A DNA stretch of 64,000 nucleotides from an uncultured Methanosarcinales archaeon. GTDB lineage: Archaea > Nanobdellota > Nanobdellia > Woesearchaeales > GW2011-AR9. Each line of letters opens with the position of its first letter. Within the stretch, counting starts at the first letter, position 1. The stretch is from positions 319,585-383,584 of the forward strand of contig CAYFJV010000002.1 of NCBI GenBank assembly GCA_964343575.1, in the 5' to 3' direction. Position numbers and translations under genes: made by a program. The notes under the pieces are model-generated. The model ran no database searches. It was not told the origin of the DNA and worked only from the letters and a program-made list of their open reading frames with translations. Below are positions 29,143 through 49,828 of this stretch, one piece after another.

Positions 29143-29246
29143 AGCCCCGTGGTGTAGTGGACTATCATCGCGCTCTTTGGAGCCAGAGAAGTTTACTTTT
29201 TTGGTGGAGTGAAGCGTGGACCGCGGTTCGAATCCGCGCGGGGCTA
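29143..29246 (+). tRNA. tRNA-Gln(TTG) with 31-nt intron (29181-29211); integration target
   Basis: AGCCCCG/CGGGGCT acceptor and TTCGAAT T-loop. The intron sits at 37/38 with a bulge-helix-bulge (CTTT:GGAG helix; GGA and TGA bulges). Confidence 0.92.
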
Positions 29247-41950: not shown

Positions 41951-41967
41951 GAATCCGCGCGGGGCTA
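41951..41967 (+). repeat. attR (duplicated 3' end of tRNA-Gln)
   Basis: Identical to 29230-29246. Confidence 0.92.
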
Positions 41968-42051
41968 CTTTTTTTCTTCTACTGTTTTACCTATCCAGAA
42001 AGTAAATATTTAAGTACCTTCTTGGAAAACCGGCTTTTTGAGGTGAATCTT

Positions 42052-42135
42052 ATGGATGAATGTACGCAATGTCAGGTAGAAGTCAAAGAAGTCTGCAACT
42101 CCTGTAGCGCTTGTGGTTCTTGTTGCGAGTGTTAA
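42052..42135 (+). CDS. 27-aa Cys-rich metallothionein-like peptide
   Basis: MDECTQCQVEVKEVCNSCSACGSCCEC* (8 Cys); GAGGTGA RBS 5 nt before the ATG. Confidence 0.75.
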   Translation: MDECTQCQVEVKEVCNSCSACGSCCEC

Positions 42136-42211
42136 ACTTAATTTTTTCTTTTTCTCTTATTGATAATCTGTCTCAATAAGTATTATAAATAGTCTCTTTT
42201 ACAAGCTCTGT

Positions 42212-43168
42212 ATGAGAATAGCTTTTCTTGGAAAAGGAGGTAGTGGAAAAAGTACTCTAGCTGCTGCTTTTATCAAACATGTCTCTTCACAAAAGCAAAT
42301 TCTTGCAATTGATGCTGATGTTAACCAACATTTGGCTCCTTTACTTGAGATCACGCCAAGAAAAGAAAATTTGGGTGATTCTGTTGCTTTTATACAAAAA
42401 TATGTTCTTGGAAAAAGAAATGGTCTTGAAGCTAGTGAGGTTGTTGGAACACTCCCTCCAACAATGGATTCAACTTTTATTGTGCCAAAGGTCGGAGATC
42501 CATTTATTGATAAGTTTGCAGTCACCAAAGATAACATCTCTCTAATGCGCGTAGGAACTTATGAAGGTAAAGATATTGGTAGTGCTTGTTACCATAGCAA
42601 ATTAGCATCATTAGAATTATTTTTTCATTATCTTTTAGATAAAAGAAACGAGTATATTATTGTTGATTCAACTGCGGGGACAGATATTCTTGGGACTTCT
42701 TTGCATATGGCTTATGATGTGTTAGTATTTGTTATTGAACCAACTGCAAAGTCTGTACAAGTGTTTAAAGATTTTATAGAACGTTTCGATTCAACACGAG
42801 TTCGAGTTGTGGCACTTGGGAATAAAGTTGAAGATGGAGATGATAAAGAGTTCCTTAGGAAGAATGTTGGACATGAATATCTTCTTGGTTTTGTTCCTTA
42901 CTCAAAGAAGGTGCGGCGTTTTGAACAAGGAGACGAGCAAGCTTTTACAGATTTTGTAGCATCGAATAATGGGCTGTTTTCAAATGTTCTTGAAGATATT
43001 GGTTACCTAAAAAGAGATTGGGCAGAGTATCTCATACATCTTTCTAAAGTTCACAAAAAGACTTGTGAGAAATGGTATGATGAGTATTACAAAAAAAAGA
43101 TCTCTGAGCTTGTTGACAGCTCTTTTTCCTATGAGAAGGCAATGGAGATAAATAGAAATGACAATTGA
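42212..43168 (+). CDS. CooC/MinD-like P-loop ATPase
   Basis: MRIAFLGKGGSGKST, AIDAD, ACYH, VDSTAG, GNK. Confidence 0.85.
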   Translation: MRIAFLGKGGSGKSTLAAAFIKHVSSQKQILAIDADVNQHLAPLLEITPRKENLGDSVAFIQKYVLGKRNGLEASEVVGTLPPTMDSTFIVPKVGDPFIDKFAVTKDNISLMRVGTYEGKDIGSACYHSKLASLELFFHYLLDKRNEYIIVDSTAGTDILGTSLHMAYDVLVFVIEPTAKSVQVFKDFIERFDSTRVRVVALGNKVEDGDDKEFLRKNVGHEYLLGFVPYSKKVRRFEQGDEQAFTDFVASNNGLFSNVLEDIGYLKRDWAEYLIHLSKVHKKTCEKWYDEYYKKKISELVDSSFSYEKAMEINRNDN

Positions 43169-44792
43169 TACTCTTATTGATGCAATTGTTGTTACTGGAC
43201 CTCTTGGTTCTGGGAAGACTACCTTTGTAGGTGCGAGAGAAGGAAGTATAGTTCCTTACCTGCAAAGAACTCAACAAGCTGATGGTCTTACGCTCCTTGT
43301 AAATGAAGCTGCACTTGGTAACTCTGATGGAGCTTATCACACAGATGGGAGAAGACTCTCTGGTCTTGTTTCTGAAGGTCAGCTTAAGATGTTTGGTCAG
43401 AGTTGTGTTTGTTGTGATGGCGAAGAGACTTTTCGTCAAGCTTTAGGAGATCTTGGTGCCGGATCGAATCAGCGTGTTGTTATCGAGCCAACTGGCATTG
43501 CTAATGCAAACAATATTGTAGATGCGCTTCTGGACATAAGAGATGGAGATGCTCCTAAATTTAGAGTTGGTCATGTTCTTTATCTTATGCCTGTTAGAGG
43601 TTTTAGTAAGGTAGAAAAACACGATGGTATTCTTGCAGCAGATCATGTCGTTCTTACTTGGTTAACTGGAGATGCAGCTGAACAAGAAGAAGTTGCTGCG
43701 TATGTTCATGCAAAAAATCCAGATGCTACTATTCATTTGTTCACTGACGATTTTGATTATGGTGTTATAGATAGTTCTGAGCCATGGAGTAAAGAAGCTT
43801 TTAGAGCAAGAAGATTTGTATCAATCCCTGAAATGGGAAGATTTTCCTTCGCAGGAGTTGGTCAAGGCCATTTACTCGCGCCTCCTGGGGCAGTACACTC
43901 ACATGGTCATCATCACCACCATCATGATAGTTATGCTGTGGCTTCTTTTGAATTGAACCCTTACGAGGCAGTTACAGCTGAAGGAGACACTTCTGCCTTA
44001 AAAGAAGTTCTTGATCAATTAGCAGCAAGAGGAACAGAGAGAGTAAAAGGTTATGTGAGAATCAATAGAGAAGAAGTTATTCCTTTTGATGTTGTTCGAG
44101 GAGAAGTAGTTATTGGAGGGCGAGTTCAAGATCCACATACTATCTATGGGAATGGTTCTTTAGAAGTCATTGATAGACATTTGCCAGATGATTTAGCTGA
44201 GCTTGTTGAACCATTGACAGATGCAGCTAGAGATGCTGTTGCTTTACGGGGTGCATCTCTGGATGAAATGTCTGATCTTTTCAGAATCTATATGGATTCT
44301 AGAATTGAACAAAGTCCTTTGATGGGTGATGCAGACCAAAATTTTGTGCCCCAGAGTTATGAAGGTGTTGAAGTGGCTTTTAGTCTTGCAGAGCAGATCT
44401 GTAGGGAGCATAGGGAAAGTGATCCCCTCTCTGAGGCCCTTACTGCCTACGTTGATCTTTATAGGAACGGTGCAGCCCAAGCAACTGGACAAGACAATGA
44501 GTTTTTTATCAGAGCAACCTTTGGCATGAAAATCCTTAATGCACTCACAAAAAGTGAACCCCTCCTCAAGGATGCTTCTTTTGATCTTTGTCGGATCTCA
44601 GAAGAATATCTAACTGCCCTTGGTTCATTTAGTGGTAGTGACCTTGCACGTATTGAAGAAGGATCAGATCCGGAAGGCTACCGTTCTTACATGAGGAAAA
44701 TGGCAGCCGTAGCAAGAGAGCACTTATCTGGAGATTCTGACACATCTCTTTACAGTACAGCGATTGCAAACCTAGATGCACTTGGTTTTTAA
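43158..44792 (+). CDS. COG0523/CobW-family metallochaperone GTPase with His tract and extra C-terminal domain
   Basis: TGPLGSGKTT, VNE, CVCC, IEPTG, HSHGHHHHHH, RVKG. Confidence 0.85.
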   Translation: MTIDTLIDAIVVTGPLGSGKTTFVGAREGSIVPYLQRTQQADGLTLLVNEAALGNSDGAYHTDGRRLSGLVSEGQLKMFGQSCVCCDGEETFRQALGDLGAGSNQRVVIEPTGIANANNIVDALLDIRDGDAPKFRVGHVLYLMPVRGFSKVEKHDGILAADHVVLTWLTGDAAEQEEVAAYVHAKNPDATIHLFTDDFDYGVIDSSEPWSKEAFRARRFVSIPEMGRFSFAGVGQGHLLAPPGAVHSHGHHHHHHDSYAVASFELNPYEAVTAEGDTSALKEVLDQLAARGTERVKGYVRINREEVIPFDVVRGEVVIGGRVQDPHTIYGNGSLEVIDRHLPDDLAELVEPLTDAARDAVALRGASLDEMSDLFRIYMDSRIEQSPLMGDADQNFVPQSYEGVEVAFSLAEQICREHRESDPLSEALTAYVDLYRNGAAQATGQDNEFFIRATFGMKILNALTKSEPLLKDASFDLCRISEEYLTALGSFSGSDLARIEEGSDPEGYRSYMRKMAAVAREHLSGDSDTSLYSTAIANLDALGF

Positions 44793-44863
44793 TTCGTGCA
44801 GTGATCAAGAGTAGGGATTAGTTTTGGGAGTGTTCTTGAGGATAAAACATTGATAAGATTATT

Positions 44864-46258
44864 ATGACAACGCTCCAAGTACTTCCAAAGCAGAACAAAT
44901 TTGTTGAAGATTTTCTCTCAACAGTACCTTCACTAGATGATTCTCTTTTTACCTCTGGACCAACTCAGTTCTCCTCTCCAAATTCCTTTAGAGAGAACTG
45001 TCAAAAATTAAAGAAGGAGTTGGAATACTTTCCATTTCCTGTCACCATATTCTTTGCACATAAAGCAAATAAGTCTAAGGTCTTCGTCAATGAAGCTAAG
45101 GTAGCTGGGATAAATGTAGATGTCGCTTCTTACAGTGAACTAAGGAATGCTCTTTCAGTTGGATTTAGTGGAGAGAACATAGAATGTACTGGAATAAAAA
45201 ATGAGCAATTCATCGACTTAGCAATCAAAGAAAGTTGTCTTATTGTTGTTGATAGCATCTTCGAGCTTGACCTCATAAAAAAACTATCTGCTAACAGAGA
45301 AGTAAGACTGCTTTTACGAATCAGTGATCCTTTTGTAGGGTCGTATCACCGGCCAACACGTTTTGGTATACCTCGAGATACATTTTTAGAACTTTTGGAT
45401 AAAAAGGAACTTCAGAGATACAAGGTAGAAGGCCTTCATTTTCATTTCCATGATAATATTCCTAAGAATAAGTCTATGATGATAAAAGAACTGCTCTCTT
45501 TGTATAAAGGACTTTACAAACATAATTTCTTCCCAAATAAGATCAACATTGGTGGAGGGTACCGTTTCCCTTTAGTCAATGCTTTGGAATTGGAAAGCGT
45601 TTTTGAACAGATTGAACAAATAAACTTTGATGATTTGGCTTATGCAAACACTCTTTTTGGATTCGAAAGAGGAAGGAATGGAAGGCTAAGTAAAACACAA
45701 GTTGGTGAAAAACTCTCTCCATTAAGTCCATTTGAATTCATAAAAACATTAATTGACCATAACCAAGAAGAGAAACTTCTCATTGAAGATCTCCAACTCT
45801 CTTTATGTATCGAACCAGGTTATGCCTTATTAGAGAATTGTAGTGTTCTGGTCATGCGTGTTCTAGGGACAAAGAAGATTGGAAAGAACAAAAGTGCGGT
45901 CATTGTTGATGGTAACATGTATAATCTTTCAACCCAGATGAAAACATGGATAACTGATCCAATTTTGATATCAAGAAACAAAAGAGAACAGAGAGATGAG
46001 TCATTTGAAGGTTTTGTTATTGGTAATTTGTGTAAGGAAGATGATGTCCTGTTAGATAGAAAGATTCATTTTGAGAGAAGACCACAAAACGGAGATCTCT
46101 TAGTATTTTGTAATACTGCACCTTATTCTGGGAGTTTTGAAGATTCTGATCCCTGCCTCATGCCGAAAATTAGGAATTATGTTTTTACAACAAACGGTGA
46201 TGGAAGTTTTTTGATTCAAACAGAGAAAGAGTATTTGGAGGAGAGAAATGATAATTAA
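44864..46258 (+). CDS. Type III PLP decarboxylase (LysA/Y4yA-like)
   Basis: FAHKAN, DVAS..E, TRFG, GLHFH, NIGGG, EPG, GNLCKEDD, NTAPY. Confidence 0.88.
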   Translation: MTTLQVLPKQNKFVEDFLSTVPSLDDSLFTSGPTQFSSPNSFRENCQKLKKELEYFPFPVTIFFAHKANKSKVFVNEAKVAGINVDVASYSELRNALSVGFSGENIECTGIKNEQFIDLAIKESCLIVVDSIFELDLIKKLSANREVRLLLRISDPFVGSYHRPTRFGIPRDTFLELLDKKELQRYKVEGLHFHFHDNIPKNKSMMIKELLSLYKGLYKHNFFPNKINIGGGYRFPLVNALELESVFEQIEQINFDDLAYANTLFGFERGRNGRLSKTQVGEKLSPLSPFEFIKTLIDHNQEEKLLIEDLQLSLCIEPGYALLENCSVLVMRVLGTKKIGKNKSAVIVDGNMYNLSTQMKTWITDPILISRNKREQRDESFEGFVIGNLCKEDDVLLDRKIHFERRPQNGDLLVFCNTAPYSGSFEDSDPCLMPKIRNYVFTTNGDGSFLIQTEKEYLEERNDN

Positions 46259-47534
46259 GAGCATAACAGAAATGGTTGGAAATACGCCTCTTCTTGAAAT
46301 TCCACAATCAGTTCATGGAATTCCTAAATTACACCTTTACTGTAAACTTGAATACATGAATGCATTCGGCTCAATTAAAGATAGAATTGCATTGAATATG
46401 ATCAAAGATGAGATCGGGGAATGTAAAGATAAGAAAAAAACAATTTTAGAAGCGTCAAGTGGTAATACTGCAAAGGCCTTGGCATTACTCTCCTCTATTA
46501 ATGGACTAAAATTCAAGACAATTTCAAATAGGATTAAATCTCCAGAAATGAAAAAGCTCTTGTTACTCTCTGGGGCGAGCGTGGAAGAATTACCTGGCGC
46601 ATCAGAGTGTCCAGATCCAAACAATCCTGATGATTATATGGAAGTAGCCAAAAAACTGGCAGAAAGAAAGCCTGAAGAAATCTTTTACACCGACCAATAT
46701 TTTAACATAAAAAACCCTCAAGCACATAGGCAGACAGGTAAAGAGATTTGTAAAGATTTAGAACAGGTCGATTATCTTTTTACTTTTTTGGGGACTGCTG
46801 GTTCTTCAAGAGGTATTGGTTCAGTTTTAAAAAAAGAAAGAACTTCCAAAGTGATAGGCATAGTTGCGGAGAGAGGAAATTATATCCCTGGTGGAAGAAC
46901 GCGTGATGAAATGTGGGAAGTTGGTTTCTTTGAAAAATCTTTTTATGATGATGTGATCTCTGGAACGAGCAAAGAAGCTATCGGGGGTATGCTCTCTTTG
47001 ATTAGAAGATTAGGACTTCTTTGTGGTCCAACATCTGGTTTATCATACAAAAAAACAATTGATTATTTCAAGCAAAATCCTCCAAGAGAAGAGACAACTG
47101 CAGTTTTTATTGCTTGTGATAGGGTAGAACCTTATTTGTCATACACAGAAAAATATGTGCCAGATGTGCTGGGTGTTGGTTCATCAGGAAGGTTTTATGT
47201 AAACCATATTTGTGATGAGCAATGTAACGCTAGCGAGATTGATGCAGGAAGTCTAAAACCACACATTGAAGAGGTAACTATACTTGATATTAGAACAAGT
47301 AGGTCATTTGAAATGTACCATCTCCCAAACTCAATCAACATCCCTGAGAGTCAGCTTGACATTTTCTTTGAAAAGAGGATCCCCTTCTCTAAGGGCAGAA
47401 AATTAGTAGTTGTTTGCTCTCGAGGAGAAAAATCAAGGAAGCTTGCAAGTTTGTTAGTAAGTAAAGGCTATGATGCTGTCTCTTTGAAAAATGGTGTTTA
47501 TTCTTGGAGATTGGGTCAAAGTACTCTCTCCTAA
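46248..47534 (+). CDS. Cysteine synthase-like PLP enzyme fused to a rhodanese domain
   Basis: GNTPL, GSIKDR, EASSGNT, GTAG; C-terminal LDIR...HLPNSINIP...VVCSRGEKS. Confidence 0.9.
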   Translation: MIIKSITEMVGNTPLLEIPQSVHGIPKLHLYCKLEYMNAFGSIKDRIALNMIKDEIGECKDKKKTILEASSGNTAKALALLSSINGLKFKTISNRIKSPEMKKLLLLSGASVEELPGASECPDPNNPDDYMEVAKKLAERKPEEIFYTDQYFNIKNPQAHRQTGKEICKDLEQVDYLFTFLGTAGSSRGIGSVLKKERTSKVIGIVAERGNYIPGGRTRDEMWEVGFFEKSFYDDVISGTSKEAIGGMLSLIRRLGLLCGPTSGLSYKKTIDYFKQNPPREETTAVFIACDRVEPYLSYTEKYVPDVLGVGSSGRFYVNHICDEQCNASEIDAGSLKPHIEEVTILDIRTSRSFEMYHLPNSINIPESQLDIFFEKRIPFSKGRKLVVVCSRGEKSRKLASLLVSKGYDAVSLKNGVYSWRLGQSTLS

Positions 47535-48682: not shown

Positions 48683-49828
48683 GTGAGGGATGTTTTTATG
48701 AAAATTACTATTAAGAAAGAGGTTTTTGAGCATTTTCATCCAGATTTGAAAGTAGCTTTTATTCTTATTGAAGGGATAGATAATGCGAGTAGGTTGGAAG
48801 AGTCTGTGCATTTGCTCAAAGAAGCCGAGCACCTTATTCGTTTGACTTTTAATAAAGAGAGCATTAAAACACACCATCTTGTTTCCCCTTGGGTTGCAGC
48901 GCAACAAGAGTTTGGTAGGAAAGCAAAACATTATCACACTTCAGTTGAGCGTTTGATGCGTGCGATTTTGCGTAAGAAAACCGTTGCCTCTCGTGATGTA
49001 GTAACTAACCTGGTGCGTTATACTTCTTTGAAACACTTAGTGCCAATGGCAGTGGATGATCCCGATAAGCTTGTTGGTCAGCTATCGTTTCATTTAGCTA
49101 ATGGAAAAGAAAGAATCTCTTTGTTGGAAGGAGTAAAAAAAGGTGCATTTGTTTATACTGATCAAGCTAAGAAGAAGAACTTGCTTGGAGCAAAGTTAGA
49201 TTATTGGAAATCTCCACGTACTAAACTGAGGTCAAGCAGCAAGCGGGCGCTTGTACACTTAGAAGCTTTGCCTCCTTTGAGCACAGGGAAATTTGCAGTT
49301 CTCTTGGCTGAGCTAGTTGATATCCTGAAGGAGTTTACTGGTGGGAAGGTAAAAGTTTTGATCCTTTCTCGTAGCAAGAACAGTGGTGAGTTTAGTTGGG
49401 TGAAGGTTGGCGCTGTGAAGAAAGTAGCTAAGCGTAAGAGGGTTAAAAGGAAAACTCTGAAGAGAAAGGCCCCTGCTAAGAAGGCGAAGCGAAAGCTTAC
49501 TAAGAAAAAAATAGTTAAGAAAAAGAGAGTAGCGAAGAGGAAAACTCCTAAGAAAAGAGTAAGCAGGCGTAAAGTGACTAAGCGTAAGCCAGCTAAAAGG
49601 AAGGTAAGCAGGAAGAGTCCAGCTAAGAGGAAAGTGAGTAAGAGGAGAGCTGTTAAACGTAAAACTACTAAGCGCAAGGCTCCTAAAAGGAAGACAAAGG
49701 CTAAGAAATCAAAGAAGCCTAAGAGAAGAAAGGTTGCTAAGCGTAAAAAGGTTGTGAAAAGAAAGCCGGCTCGAAAGAAGAAAGTTGTTCGTAGAAGAGC
49801 AAGGGCAGCTCCTAGGCCAAGACGCTAG
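48683..49828 (+). CDS. B3/4 (PheRS-beta editing-like) domain fused to a Lys/Arg-rich histone-H1-like tail
   Basis: PW...FG......TSVERLMR...VNL....SLKHLVP....D.D B3/4 pattern; the last ~140 aa are KR/AP-rich repeats. Confidence 0.8.
   Translation: MRDVFMKITIKKEVFEHFHPDLKVAFILIEGIDNASRLEESVHLLKEAEHLIRLTFNKESIKTHHLVSPWVAAQQEFGRKAKHYHTSVERLMRAILRKKTVASRDVVTNLVRYTSLKHLVPMAVDDPDKLVGQLSFHLANGKERISLLEGVKKGAFVYTDQAKKKNLLGAKLDYWKSPRTKLRSSSKRALVHLEALPPLSTGKFAVLLAELVDILKEFTGGKVKVLILSRSKNSGEFSWVKVGAVKKVAKRKRVKRKTLKRKAPAKKAKRKLTKKKIVKKKRVAKRKTPKKRVSRRKVTKRKPAKRKVSRKSPAKRKVSKRRAVKRKTTKRKAPKRKTKAKKSKKPKRRKVAKRKKVVKRKPARKKKVVRRRARAAPRPRR

Follow-up and report, generated by a model that had tools for sequence, protein, structure and literature searches.

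The window, a 64,000-nucleotide stretch of a woesearchaeal contig (CAYFJV010000002.1; genome of 1.21 Mb, 95% complete), contains a four-gene operon at 42212-47534 on the + strand for a CooC-like ATPase, a COG0523 GTPase, a decarboxylase and a synthase. The gene module to which this operon belongs is widespread and uncharacterised. The copy here is intact and apparently under metal control, and it resembles the O-phosphoserine (OPS) beta-replacement and decarboxylation steps of known metallophore pathways while belonging to none of them. Our reading, to which we give a probability of about 60%, is that the operon encodes a pathway for metal starvation, most likely of zinc, in which beta-substitution of OPS and decarboxylation of the product would yield an aminoethyl-thiol or aminoethyl-amine metal ligand.

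The original prediction had grouped five co-oriented, partly overlapping genes into one metal-acquisition or biosynthetic cluster. All five + strand open reading frames (ORFs) were confirmed at their coordinates, and the domain calls held in Pfam and PDB sequence searches. The first gene of the operon encodes the CooC-like MinD/SIMIBI ATPase (42212-43168; 318 aa, Pfam CbiA) and overlaps by 11 nt the gene for the COG0523/G3E GTPase (43158-44792; 544 aa), a protein with a cobW match, CxCC, a His tract and an extra C-terminal domain. After a gap of 71 nt follow the genes for a fold-type III pyridoxal phosphate (PLP) decarboxylase of the Y4yA family (44864-46258; 464 aa, both fold-III Pfam domains) and, again with an 11-nt overlap, for a fold-type II PLP beta-replacement enzyme fused to a rhodanese domain (46248-47534; 428 aa, PALP plus rhodanese). 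The latter resembles aspergillomarasmine A (AMA) synthetase and is called the synthase here. These four genes are one operon. The fifth gene, for a Cys-rich micro-protein (42052-42135), ends 76 nt before the ATPase gene and lies outside the operon, since an operator and a TATA-like box (42158-42190) sit between the two; the five genes are thus not a single unit as had been supposed.

The best named NCBIfam match of the synthase was CysK/CysM (TIGR01136), with 149 bits against a cut-off of 344, and the SbnA model (TIGR03945) gave 140.6 bits against a cut-off of 350. In a tree with 17 CysK/CysM-like outgroups and no AMA synthetase, the synthase family formed its own clade (SH-aLRT 100). The top PDB match, by sequence (E 6e-32) as well as by fold (Foldseek E 7e-29), was AMA synthetase (8H4Q/8H4H), for which the solved structures include an OPS complex and in which a PLP domain is likewise followed by a C-terminal rhodanese-like domain. 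The PLP lysine (K44), the S-S-G-N-T loop (S70-T74) and R217, the last aligned with an Arg of AMA synthetase and of CysM, were found in 121 of 121 family sequences, and both loop Cys121 and rhodanese Cys390 were kept in 119 of the 121. Judged by these profiles and the tree, the synthase is neither an ordinary CysK nor an SbnA. According to PMC12751119, AMA synthase, Fda4 and SbnA condense OPS with amino acids.

The decarboxylase likewise fell short of its best named NCBIfam match, LysA (TIGR01048; 101.8 bits, cut-off 297.9). It grouped with NCBI-named Y4yA proteins apart from LysA (FastTree support 94; 26-29% identity), and four of four named Y4yA proteins scored 306-395 bits on the profile of the module decarboxylase. 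The PLP lysine K67, the catalytic C390 and the E-P-G motif (E317-G319) were invariant in 42 of 42 sequences. By profile and phylogeny, then, the decarboxylase is a Y4yA-family enzyme and not LysA; the genome encodes a true LysA elsewhere (372 bits), together with a separate polyamine-type decarboxylase. The simplest alternative, an ordinary CysK and an ordinary LysA lying by chance beside metal genes, could appeal to cysKM and lysA being the best named matches. The scores far below the cut-offs (149/344 and 102/298), the separate clades, the true LysA elsewhere and the near-obligate pairing described below make that explanation highly improbable.

To count the module, pattern matches were sifted with a synthase alignment, which identified at least 593 relatives among 601 matches in species genomes and at least 584 among 596 in metagenomes. 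Eighty loci from each of the two sources entered the analysis. The family loci comprised 124 (L016-L139), the ordinary CysK-like controls were drawn from L140-L175, and L144 and L169 were in neither set. Nine archaeal loci selected by their decarboxylase brought the module set to 133. The loci include many kin and two duplicate pairs (L023=L190, L019=L194). The decarboxylase lay beside the synthase in 112 of the 124 synthase-selected loci, and eight of the 12 misses were loci shorter than 10 kb; conversely, the synthase was present in all nine archaeal loci selected by decarboxylase. The two-enzyme core is therefore widespread and its pairing is near-obligate, and it is uncharacterised. The co-occurrence and the phylogeny thus both came out on the side of the original prediction, which ordinary enzymes that do not travel together would have undone. 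Hosts included Streptomyces, Nocardia, Actinoplanes, Bdellovibrionota, Patescibacteria, Clostridia, Melainabacteria and Woesearchaeota; 19 pattern matches in viral contigs contained no relative.

The original prediction placed the pathway in a lineage thought to have little biosynthesis. Within the order, the decarboxylase was found in nine of 400 genomes, with the synthase in all nine, the ATPase in at least six and a desulfurase in none. There was no full-length synthase orthologue in 60 relatives. A class-level sample yielded two of 300 genomes; one of these belongs to another order and carries a close copy (56% and 62% identity). Within this order the module is patchy. It is not lineage-specific, and it is common in Streptomyces and Nocardia. 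A literature search found no description of the module or of the peptide, in agreement with the proposal of an undescribed pathway; the subscription chemistry journals that carry work on AMA, EDDS (ethylenediaminedisuccinate) and EDHA were mostly outside the search, and a description may exist there.

Regulation was the second line of evidence. A palindromic motif arose de novo from the upstream regions of relatives, 93 of which were left once near-duplicates had been removed from 113, with the window excluded. Its log-likelihood was 170 vs 21-23 in three shuffles, and it resembles the Zur box. The general matrix ranked the operon site seventh in the genome, at 15.1 bits. When the matrix was built from the sites of six archaeal relatives (three further archaeal loci had no site), the top three sites of the genome preceded a Fur-family gene (22.7 bits; C2:34213-34593, L195), the operon (22.1 bits) and a ZIP transporter gene (16.7 bits; C2:132125-133207, L226), the last followed by a small His/Asp-rich ORF that is secreted or lipoprotein-like. 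Twenty shuffled genomes gave a maximum of 21.4 bits and a mean of 1.7 sites of at least 16 bits with this matrix. The three genes form a predicted three-site mini-regulon. As in a Zur regulon, a palindromic operator is common to the regulator gene and to zinc-uptake genes, with the qualification that the ZIP site alone is not significant.

The operon site is a 21-bp Fur/Zur-type palindrome (42158-42178, no strand assigned) that lies 4 nt upstream of the TATA-like box (42183-42190, +) and covers the expected position of the TFB recognition element (BRE). The box was recognised by inspection, 21 nt upstream of the ATPase ATG and with similar spacing in L188 and L189, and it presumably serves the operon, the transcript of which is probably leaderless. 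A palindrome a few bases 5' of a TATA-like box was seen in the window and in six archaeal relatives. A scan for sigma-70 promoters was at chance level (14 vs 15.4), as expected because the host is an archaeon, and the S15 protein is archaeal as well. A pattern search for the operator (3 matches, 2.2 expected) was discarded as no test, the pattern having been fitted after the site was seen.

By this arrangement the operon is apparently switched on by metal shortage, and the metal is probably zinc; zinc is named because of the neighbour genes. Fur-family genes stood beside four of the nine archaeal module loci and ZnuA beside two. Among module loci of at least 10 kb, 39 of 108 had a metal marker (Fur, ZnuA, ZnuB, COG0523 or a ribosomal paralogue) compared to one of 16 ordinary CysK-like loci, a comparison in which the control set is small and the marker hidden Markov models, built from module neighbours, are biased towards the test set. 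The metal-ligand part of the original prediction thus gains a starvation context, probably of zinc, and the production of a ligand is still inference.

In the pathway that we propose, a Fur-family repressor over the BRE/TATA region would release when metal is scarce. The CysK-fold domain of the synthase would eliminate the phosphate of OPS on PLP and add a nucleophile at the beta carbon, in the manner of AMA synthetase, Fda4 and SbnA. The Y4yA enzyme would then strip the alpha-carboxyl from the serine-derived arm to leave an aminoethyl arm, and repeated rounds could lengthen the molecule. The ligand may act inside the cell, since the operon has no exporter and no binding-protein importer.

Two nucleophiles are conceivable, and sulfur is slightly favoured over amino-acid nitrogen, although the sulfur version taken by itself is less than an even bet. 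In that version the sulfur would come from a persulfide that a cysteine desulfurase loads onto rhodanese Cys390, and the product would be a cysteamine-, thialysine- or lanthionamine-type ligand. The desulfurase would here be a housekeeping NifS from elsewhere in the genome, where a NifS-NifU pair on C1 could serve. Across the 133 module loci, a class V desulfurase was the commonest third gene (90 loci), a gene that is missing from the five-gene set of the original prediction; the CooC-like ATPase was found in 49 and a methyltransferase in 46. Among 83 full-length desulfurase copies, 77 were SufS-like, 76 of which kept the Cys of the active-site region, and six were IscS-like. Because the six form one clade, they point to a single replacement event, and the filling of the slot from two subfamilies suggests that the supply of persulfide, and not a specific lyase, is under selection.

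In the nitrogen version of the same pathway, the synthase would use Asp, Glu, Ala or an amine as the partner of OPS and the decarboxylase would make an ethylenediamine unit, so that the chelator would be an aminopolycarboxylate like AMA or EDDS; the rhodanese domain would be a relic or serve another purpose. AMA synthetase is the top fold match, with the same two-domain layout and with N94-R/K95 and P-x-P-N-D loop features in common, and both characterised fungal relatives use nitrogen nucleophiles (PMC12751119). The enzyme pair occurs without a desulfurase in 24 loci of at least 10 kb, eight actinobacterial loci have a family-5 peptide/nickel ABC importer, and EDDS is zinc-repressed according to PMC7586795. 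However, this version does not account for the presence of desulfurases of two subfamilies in 90 of the 133 loci, or for loop Cys121, which is missing from AMA synthetase, and the module has no conserved exporter. We consider the nitrogen version possible and somewhat doubtful.

A more far-reaching form of the sulfur version is offered tentatively. The module could be the sulfur counterpart of diaminopropionate/ethylenediamine metallophore logic, in which the rhodanese-fused, AMA-synthetase-like enzyme would thiolate phosphoserine with desulfurase-derived persulfide and decarboxylation by Y4yA would then give a new zinc ligand of the aminoethyl-thiol type. Such a ligand, conceivably an intracellular zinc buffer, would be made in hundreds of species from Streptomyces to bacteria of the Candidate Phyla Radiation (CPR) and DPANN archaea. 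In reduced genomes, again speculatively, the ATPase or the extended COG0523 protein might also supply the phosphoserine or an activation step.

The two NTPases would handle the metal, loading or unloading the ligand or a client, and this is the weakest step of the proposal. The sole PDB sequence match of the ATPase was CooC (3KJE, E 2e-14), the nickel-insertion ATPase CooC1, with which it shares a deviant Walker A, the SIMIBI fold and a metal motif at the same place. The Cys-x-Cys metal site of the CooC nickel chaperone is not present in the ATPase, which is about 65 residues longer and has Cys126-x-His128 in its stead, both residues being invariant in 45 of 45 sequences. CooC-like paralogues were found outside the module in four of five genomes tested. 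A predicted complex of synthase and ATPase scored 0.00, gave no verdict and was not used either way.

The GTPase has the COG0523 G3E domain with Walker A, CxCC (C83-V-C-C86) and an 8-His tract (PF02492, E 2e-13), and YjiA was the top Foldseek match of its model (E 3e-9; predicted local distance difference test, pLDDT, 83). There was no Pfam CobW_C match; a modelled alpha/beta domain is similar, with YjiA aligned over 375 columns at high root-mean-square deviation. What sets the protein apart from YjiA, CobW and other G3E GTPases is an extra all-helical domain of about 180 aa (residues ~362-544) with no family match. A wide structure search with this tail returned solely designed helical repeats (Z 9-11), which are uninformative, and an Atlas search returned nothing usable. 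The extended GTPase is rare, with seven representatives at E <= 1e-30 among 1.84 billion. It adjoins the decarboxylase in L186, L190, L193 and the bacterial-looking contig L097, and the four-gene order of the window is identical in L190 and L193. Full-length extended-GTPase matches were dropped as independent evidence, all three having been in the query alignment already. Since so few module loci carry it, the extended COG0523 protein is an accessory, which further loosens the five-gene unit of the original prediction.

The nature of these NTPases raises another explanation, that two NTPases and two PLP enzymes form a maturation or modification system that builds a sulfur-containing cofactor or modifies a protein or tRNA, with no free ligand. 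The CooC, COG0523, rhodanese and desulfurase families are all of the maturation type, the module has no transporter, and in 21 Nocardia-type loci an HMA-domain protein occupies the ATPase slot. That HMA-domain protein is unrelated to the ATPase and never co-occurs with it. Against a maturation system, there was no conserved client gene among the neighbour clusters of 125 loci, and Streptomyces modules lack any such partner. We regard it as unlikely. As a separate observation, the protein in the ATPase slot is about 420 aa long and has a C-terminal HMA/CopP-like domain as its sole recognised domain (L047:7315-8574 and 20 other Nocardia-type loci).

The zinc context allows a further explanation. 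Zinc-starvation regulons frequently encode zinc-free back-ups, and lanthionine is a structural analogue of diaminopimelate (DAP). The operon could then be a zinc-shortage back-up of primary metabolism, in which OPS and persulfide or cysteine would give cysteine or lanthionine and the LysA-like enzyme would give thialysine or a polyamine analogue in place of the product of a zinc-dependent route. Ribosomal paralogues beside 11 of 133 loci and the lack of an ordinary CysK in the genome are consistent with such a role. It is countered by the true LysA (372 bits) and the separate polyamine-type decarboxylase in the genome, by the patchiness of the module and its frequent tailoring methyltransferases (46/133 loci), and by a literature search in which no link between lanthionine, thialysine and a DAP decarboxylase was found. 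We give this explanation, too, a low probability.

Several results weigh against the metal-starvation ligand pathway that we prefer. In the regulatory evidence, the ZIP site by itself (16.7 bits) falls inside the chance range, and the Fur-family regulator could not be typed as Zur, with NCBIfam scores of 49.8 bits for PerR and 26 bits for Zur, all below cut-off. A zinc marker is missing from 69 of the 108 long module loci, many upstream regions of Streptomyces and Nocardia lack the box, and ZnuA was not found in this genome. As for the chemistry, the synthase and AMA synthetase are 26-27% identical, and on the family profile a plain CysK reaches the same score as AMA synthetase (157 vs 156 bits). 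By alignment and by PMC12751119, AMA synthetase retains the rhodanese Cys yet works with nitrogen nucleophiles; Cys390 is therefore no proof of sulfur transfer. Neither this operon nor any of the nine archaeal module loci has the desulfurase; three of the nine are on contigs shorter than 10 kb. The operon has no transporter, and no ligand transporter was found in the genome. PdxS, CysE, SerC and SerK all failed to score over cut-off in this genome. No source of OPS is visible, since PdxS, CysE and SerK are not over cut-off and the sole class V enzyme is NifS-like; vitamin B6 salvage is represented by a weak ribokinase-family match only. The substrate and PLP may be supplied by the host, or one of the NTPases may carry out an unrecognised step. 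The product and the substrates named here are predictions.

Comparison with known systems places the module beside several pathways. AMA synthetase (8H4H/8H4Q) and Fda4 of Fusarium poae have the same fusion of a fold-II PLP domain to a rhodanese-like domain and are known to perform OPS beta-replacement (PMC12751119), and AMA synthetase shares the Arg at 217 and the rhodanese Cys with the synthase. In contrast to these fungal enzymes, the synthase has an extra loop Cys, a decarboxylase partner and usually a desulfurase and a metal NTPase. The staphyloferrin B branch (SbnI/SbnA/SbnB, SbnH), with which the original prediction had compared the pair, and the rhizobial y4yB-y4yA-y4xP-y4xO-y4xN-y4xM cluster, termed enigmatic in PMC3973906, also place a CysK-like enzyme beside a fold-III decarboxylase. 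A SerK/SbnI-like gene lies within the module in a few cases (L194, the same as L019, and L118). The comparison is no more than an analogy, given the score of the synthase far below the SbnA cut-off and its greater nearness to AMA synthetase. Unlike those clusters, the module has a rhodanese-fused synthase and no MFS exporter. No SbnB-like (octopine-dehydrogenase) oxidoreductase and no NRPS-independent siderophore (NIS) synthetase was found in the window genes and conserved neighbour clusters scanned. A domain scan of the 24 window proteins likewise contained no NIS synthetase, as had been stated, and there was no conserved oxidoreductase of any kind among the neighbour clusters.

Also comparable are the actinomycete aminopolycarboxylate clusters, which presumably are those for EDDS and EDHA. 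They pair a cysteine-synthase-family enzyme with a Y4yA/DAP-decarboxylase-like enzyme (PMC13206832), and the zinc repression of EDDS (PMC7586795) is a further likeness. They differ in having an ornithine cyclodeaminase and a MATE exporter, and their synthase, which scored 92 bits on the profile of this family, has no rhodanese. Apart from the module, the neighbours of Y4yA relatives in four of four plasmid loci viewed were an oxidoreductase and a gene that was either SbnA-like or of the cysteine-synthase family. A compact trio of SbnA, an FAD/NAD(P)-binding protein and Y4yA recurs on Sulfitobacter and Chondrinema plasmids (L253, L256) and is a further uncharacterised Y4yA module.

If the proposal is true, the module would make a new small-molecule metal ligand, and a large branch of the Y4yA decarboxylases, like the prokaryotic AMA-synthetase-like enzymes, would have a first function. 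The CooC-like and COG0523 NTPases would gain a candidate partner, and a host-dependent DPANN archaeon would produce a metal ligand itself, controlled by a Fur-family repressor that acts on an archaeal promoter. The module is directly testable because the same core occurs in harmless Streptomyces that are in culture.

The Cys-rich peptide is a separate lead. Its gene (42052-42135, +; 27 aa, 8 Cys) has a Shine-Dalgarno (SD)-like GAGGTGA at 42040-42046, a TATA-like box of its own at 42009-42016 and a T-rich tract behind it at 42142-42157. Ten of 113 family genomes encode homologues that have all 8 Cys and the SD-like motif; the ten contexts differ and are unrelated to one another. A profile search detected the peptide in three of 400 order genomes, one as a longer ORF. 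The 8 Cys were invariant in 11 of 11 members of 27-31 aa (C-x2-C-x7-C-x2-C-x2-C-x2-C-C-x-C; ~30% Cys), and differences were concentrated at third codon positions (673 vs 250 and 261). The peptide is a real, separate and conserved gene family, apparently unannotated and free-standing in woesearchaea (L216-L225, L228, L229). A role as precursor or member of the module was ruled out by the unrelated contexts, by the failure to find the operator near any homologue and by the absence of the peptide from 134 other module loci (0/134). The eight invariant Cys, which are only suggestive, make it a candidate micro-metallothionein or zinc-finger micro-protein; it resembles bacterial metallothioneins and archaeal zinc-finger micro-proteins in its tiny size, Cys richness and conserved Cys spacing. 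None of the 11 members matched a Pfam metallothionein, and single members had weak zinc-ribbon matches. Its position beside the operon may be chance or a loose gathering of metal genes. Two actinobacterial-type loci have metallothionein-like Cys-rich ORFs immediately behind the synthase, on the other strand (L111:7342-7548 and L112:11321-11518).

To the left of the peptide gene lies a 12.7-kb integrase element, bounded by a tRNA gene (29143-29246) and a 17-bp att repeat (41951-41967, +) that copies the 3' end of this tRNA gene and marks the right end of the element. Besides unknown ORFs, the element encodes two tyrosine recombinases, an APH-family phosphotransferase and two further proteins, one with a caspase domain and one with a RelA/SpoT domain; its GC falls to 32-36%. 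The peptide, the operon and a NUDIX gene lie beyond the repeat, just outside the element, and this position ruled out the operon as cargo. In G001, of the same genus, ~660 bp separate the tRNA gene from the gene that is shared next, and the peptide, operon and NUDIX genes were not found there; for that reason we regard the operon as a variable islet at a tRNA hot spot, likely gained rather than lost at the site. ARAGORN called the tRNA as Pro(tgg) with an intron, but its syntenic counterpart in both G001 and G021 is Gln(ttg), which suggests that the intron may be a non-canonical one.

Two further observations concern other regions. At 48683-49828 of the window, a B3/4-domain protein has a long Lys/Arg-rich, histone-H1-like C-terminal tail, and relatives match its first ~233 residues only. 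At C1:630382-636378, a provirus-like region with methyltransferase-like, ParB, terminase- and portal-like ORFs was identified by inspection, and it contains the only ParB-domain gene of the genome.

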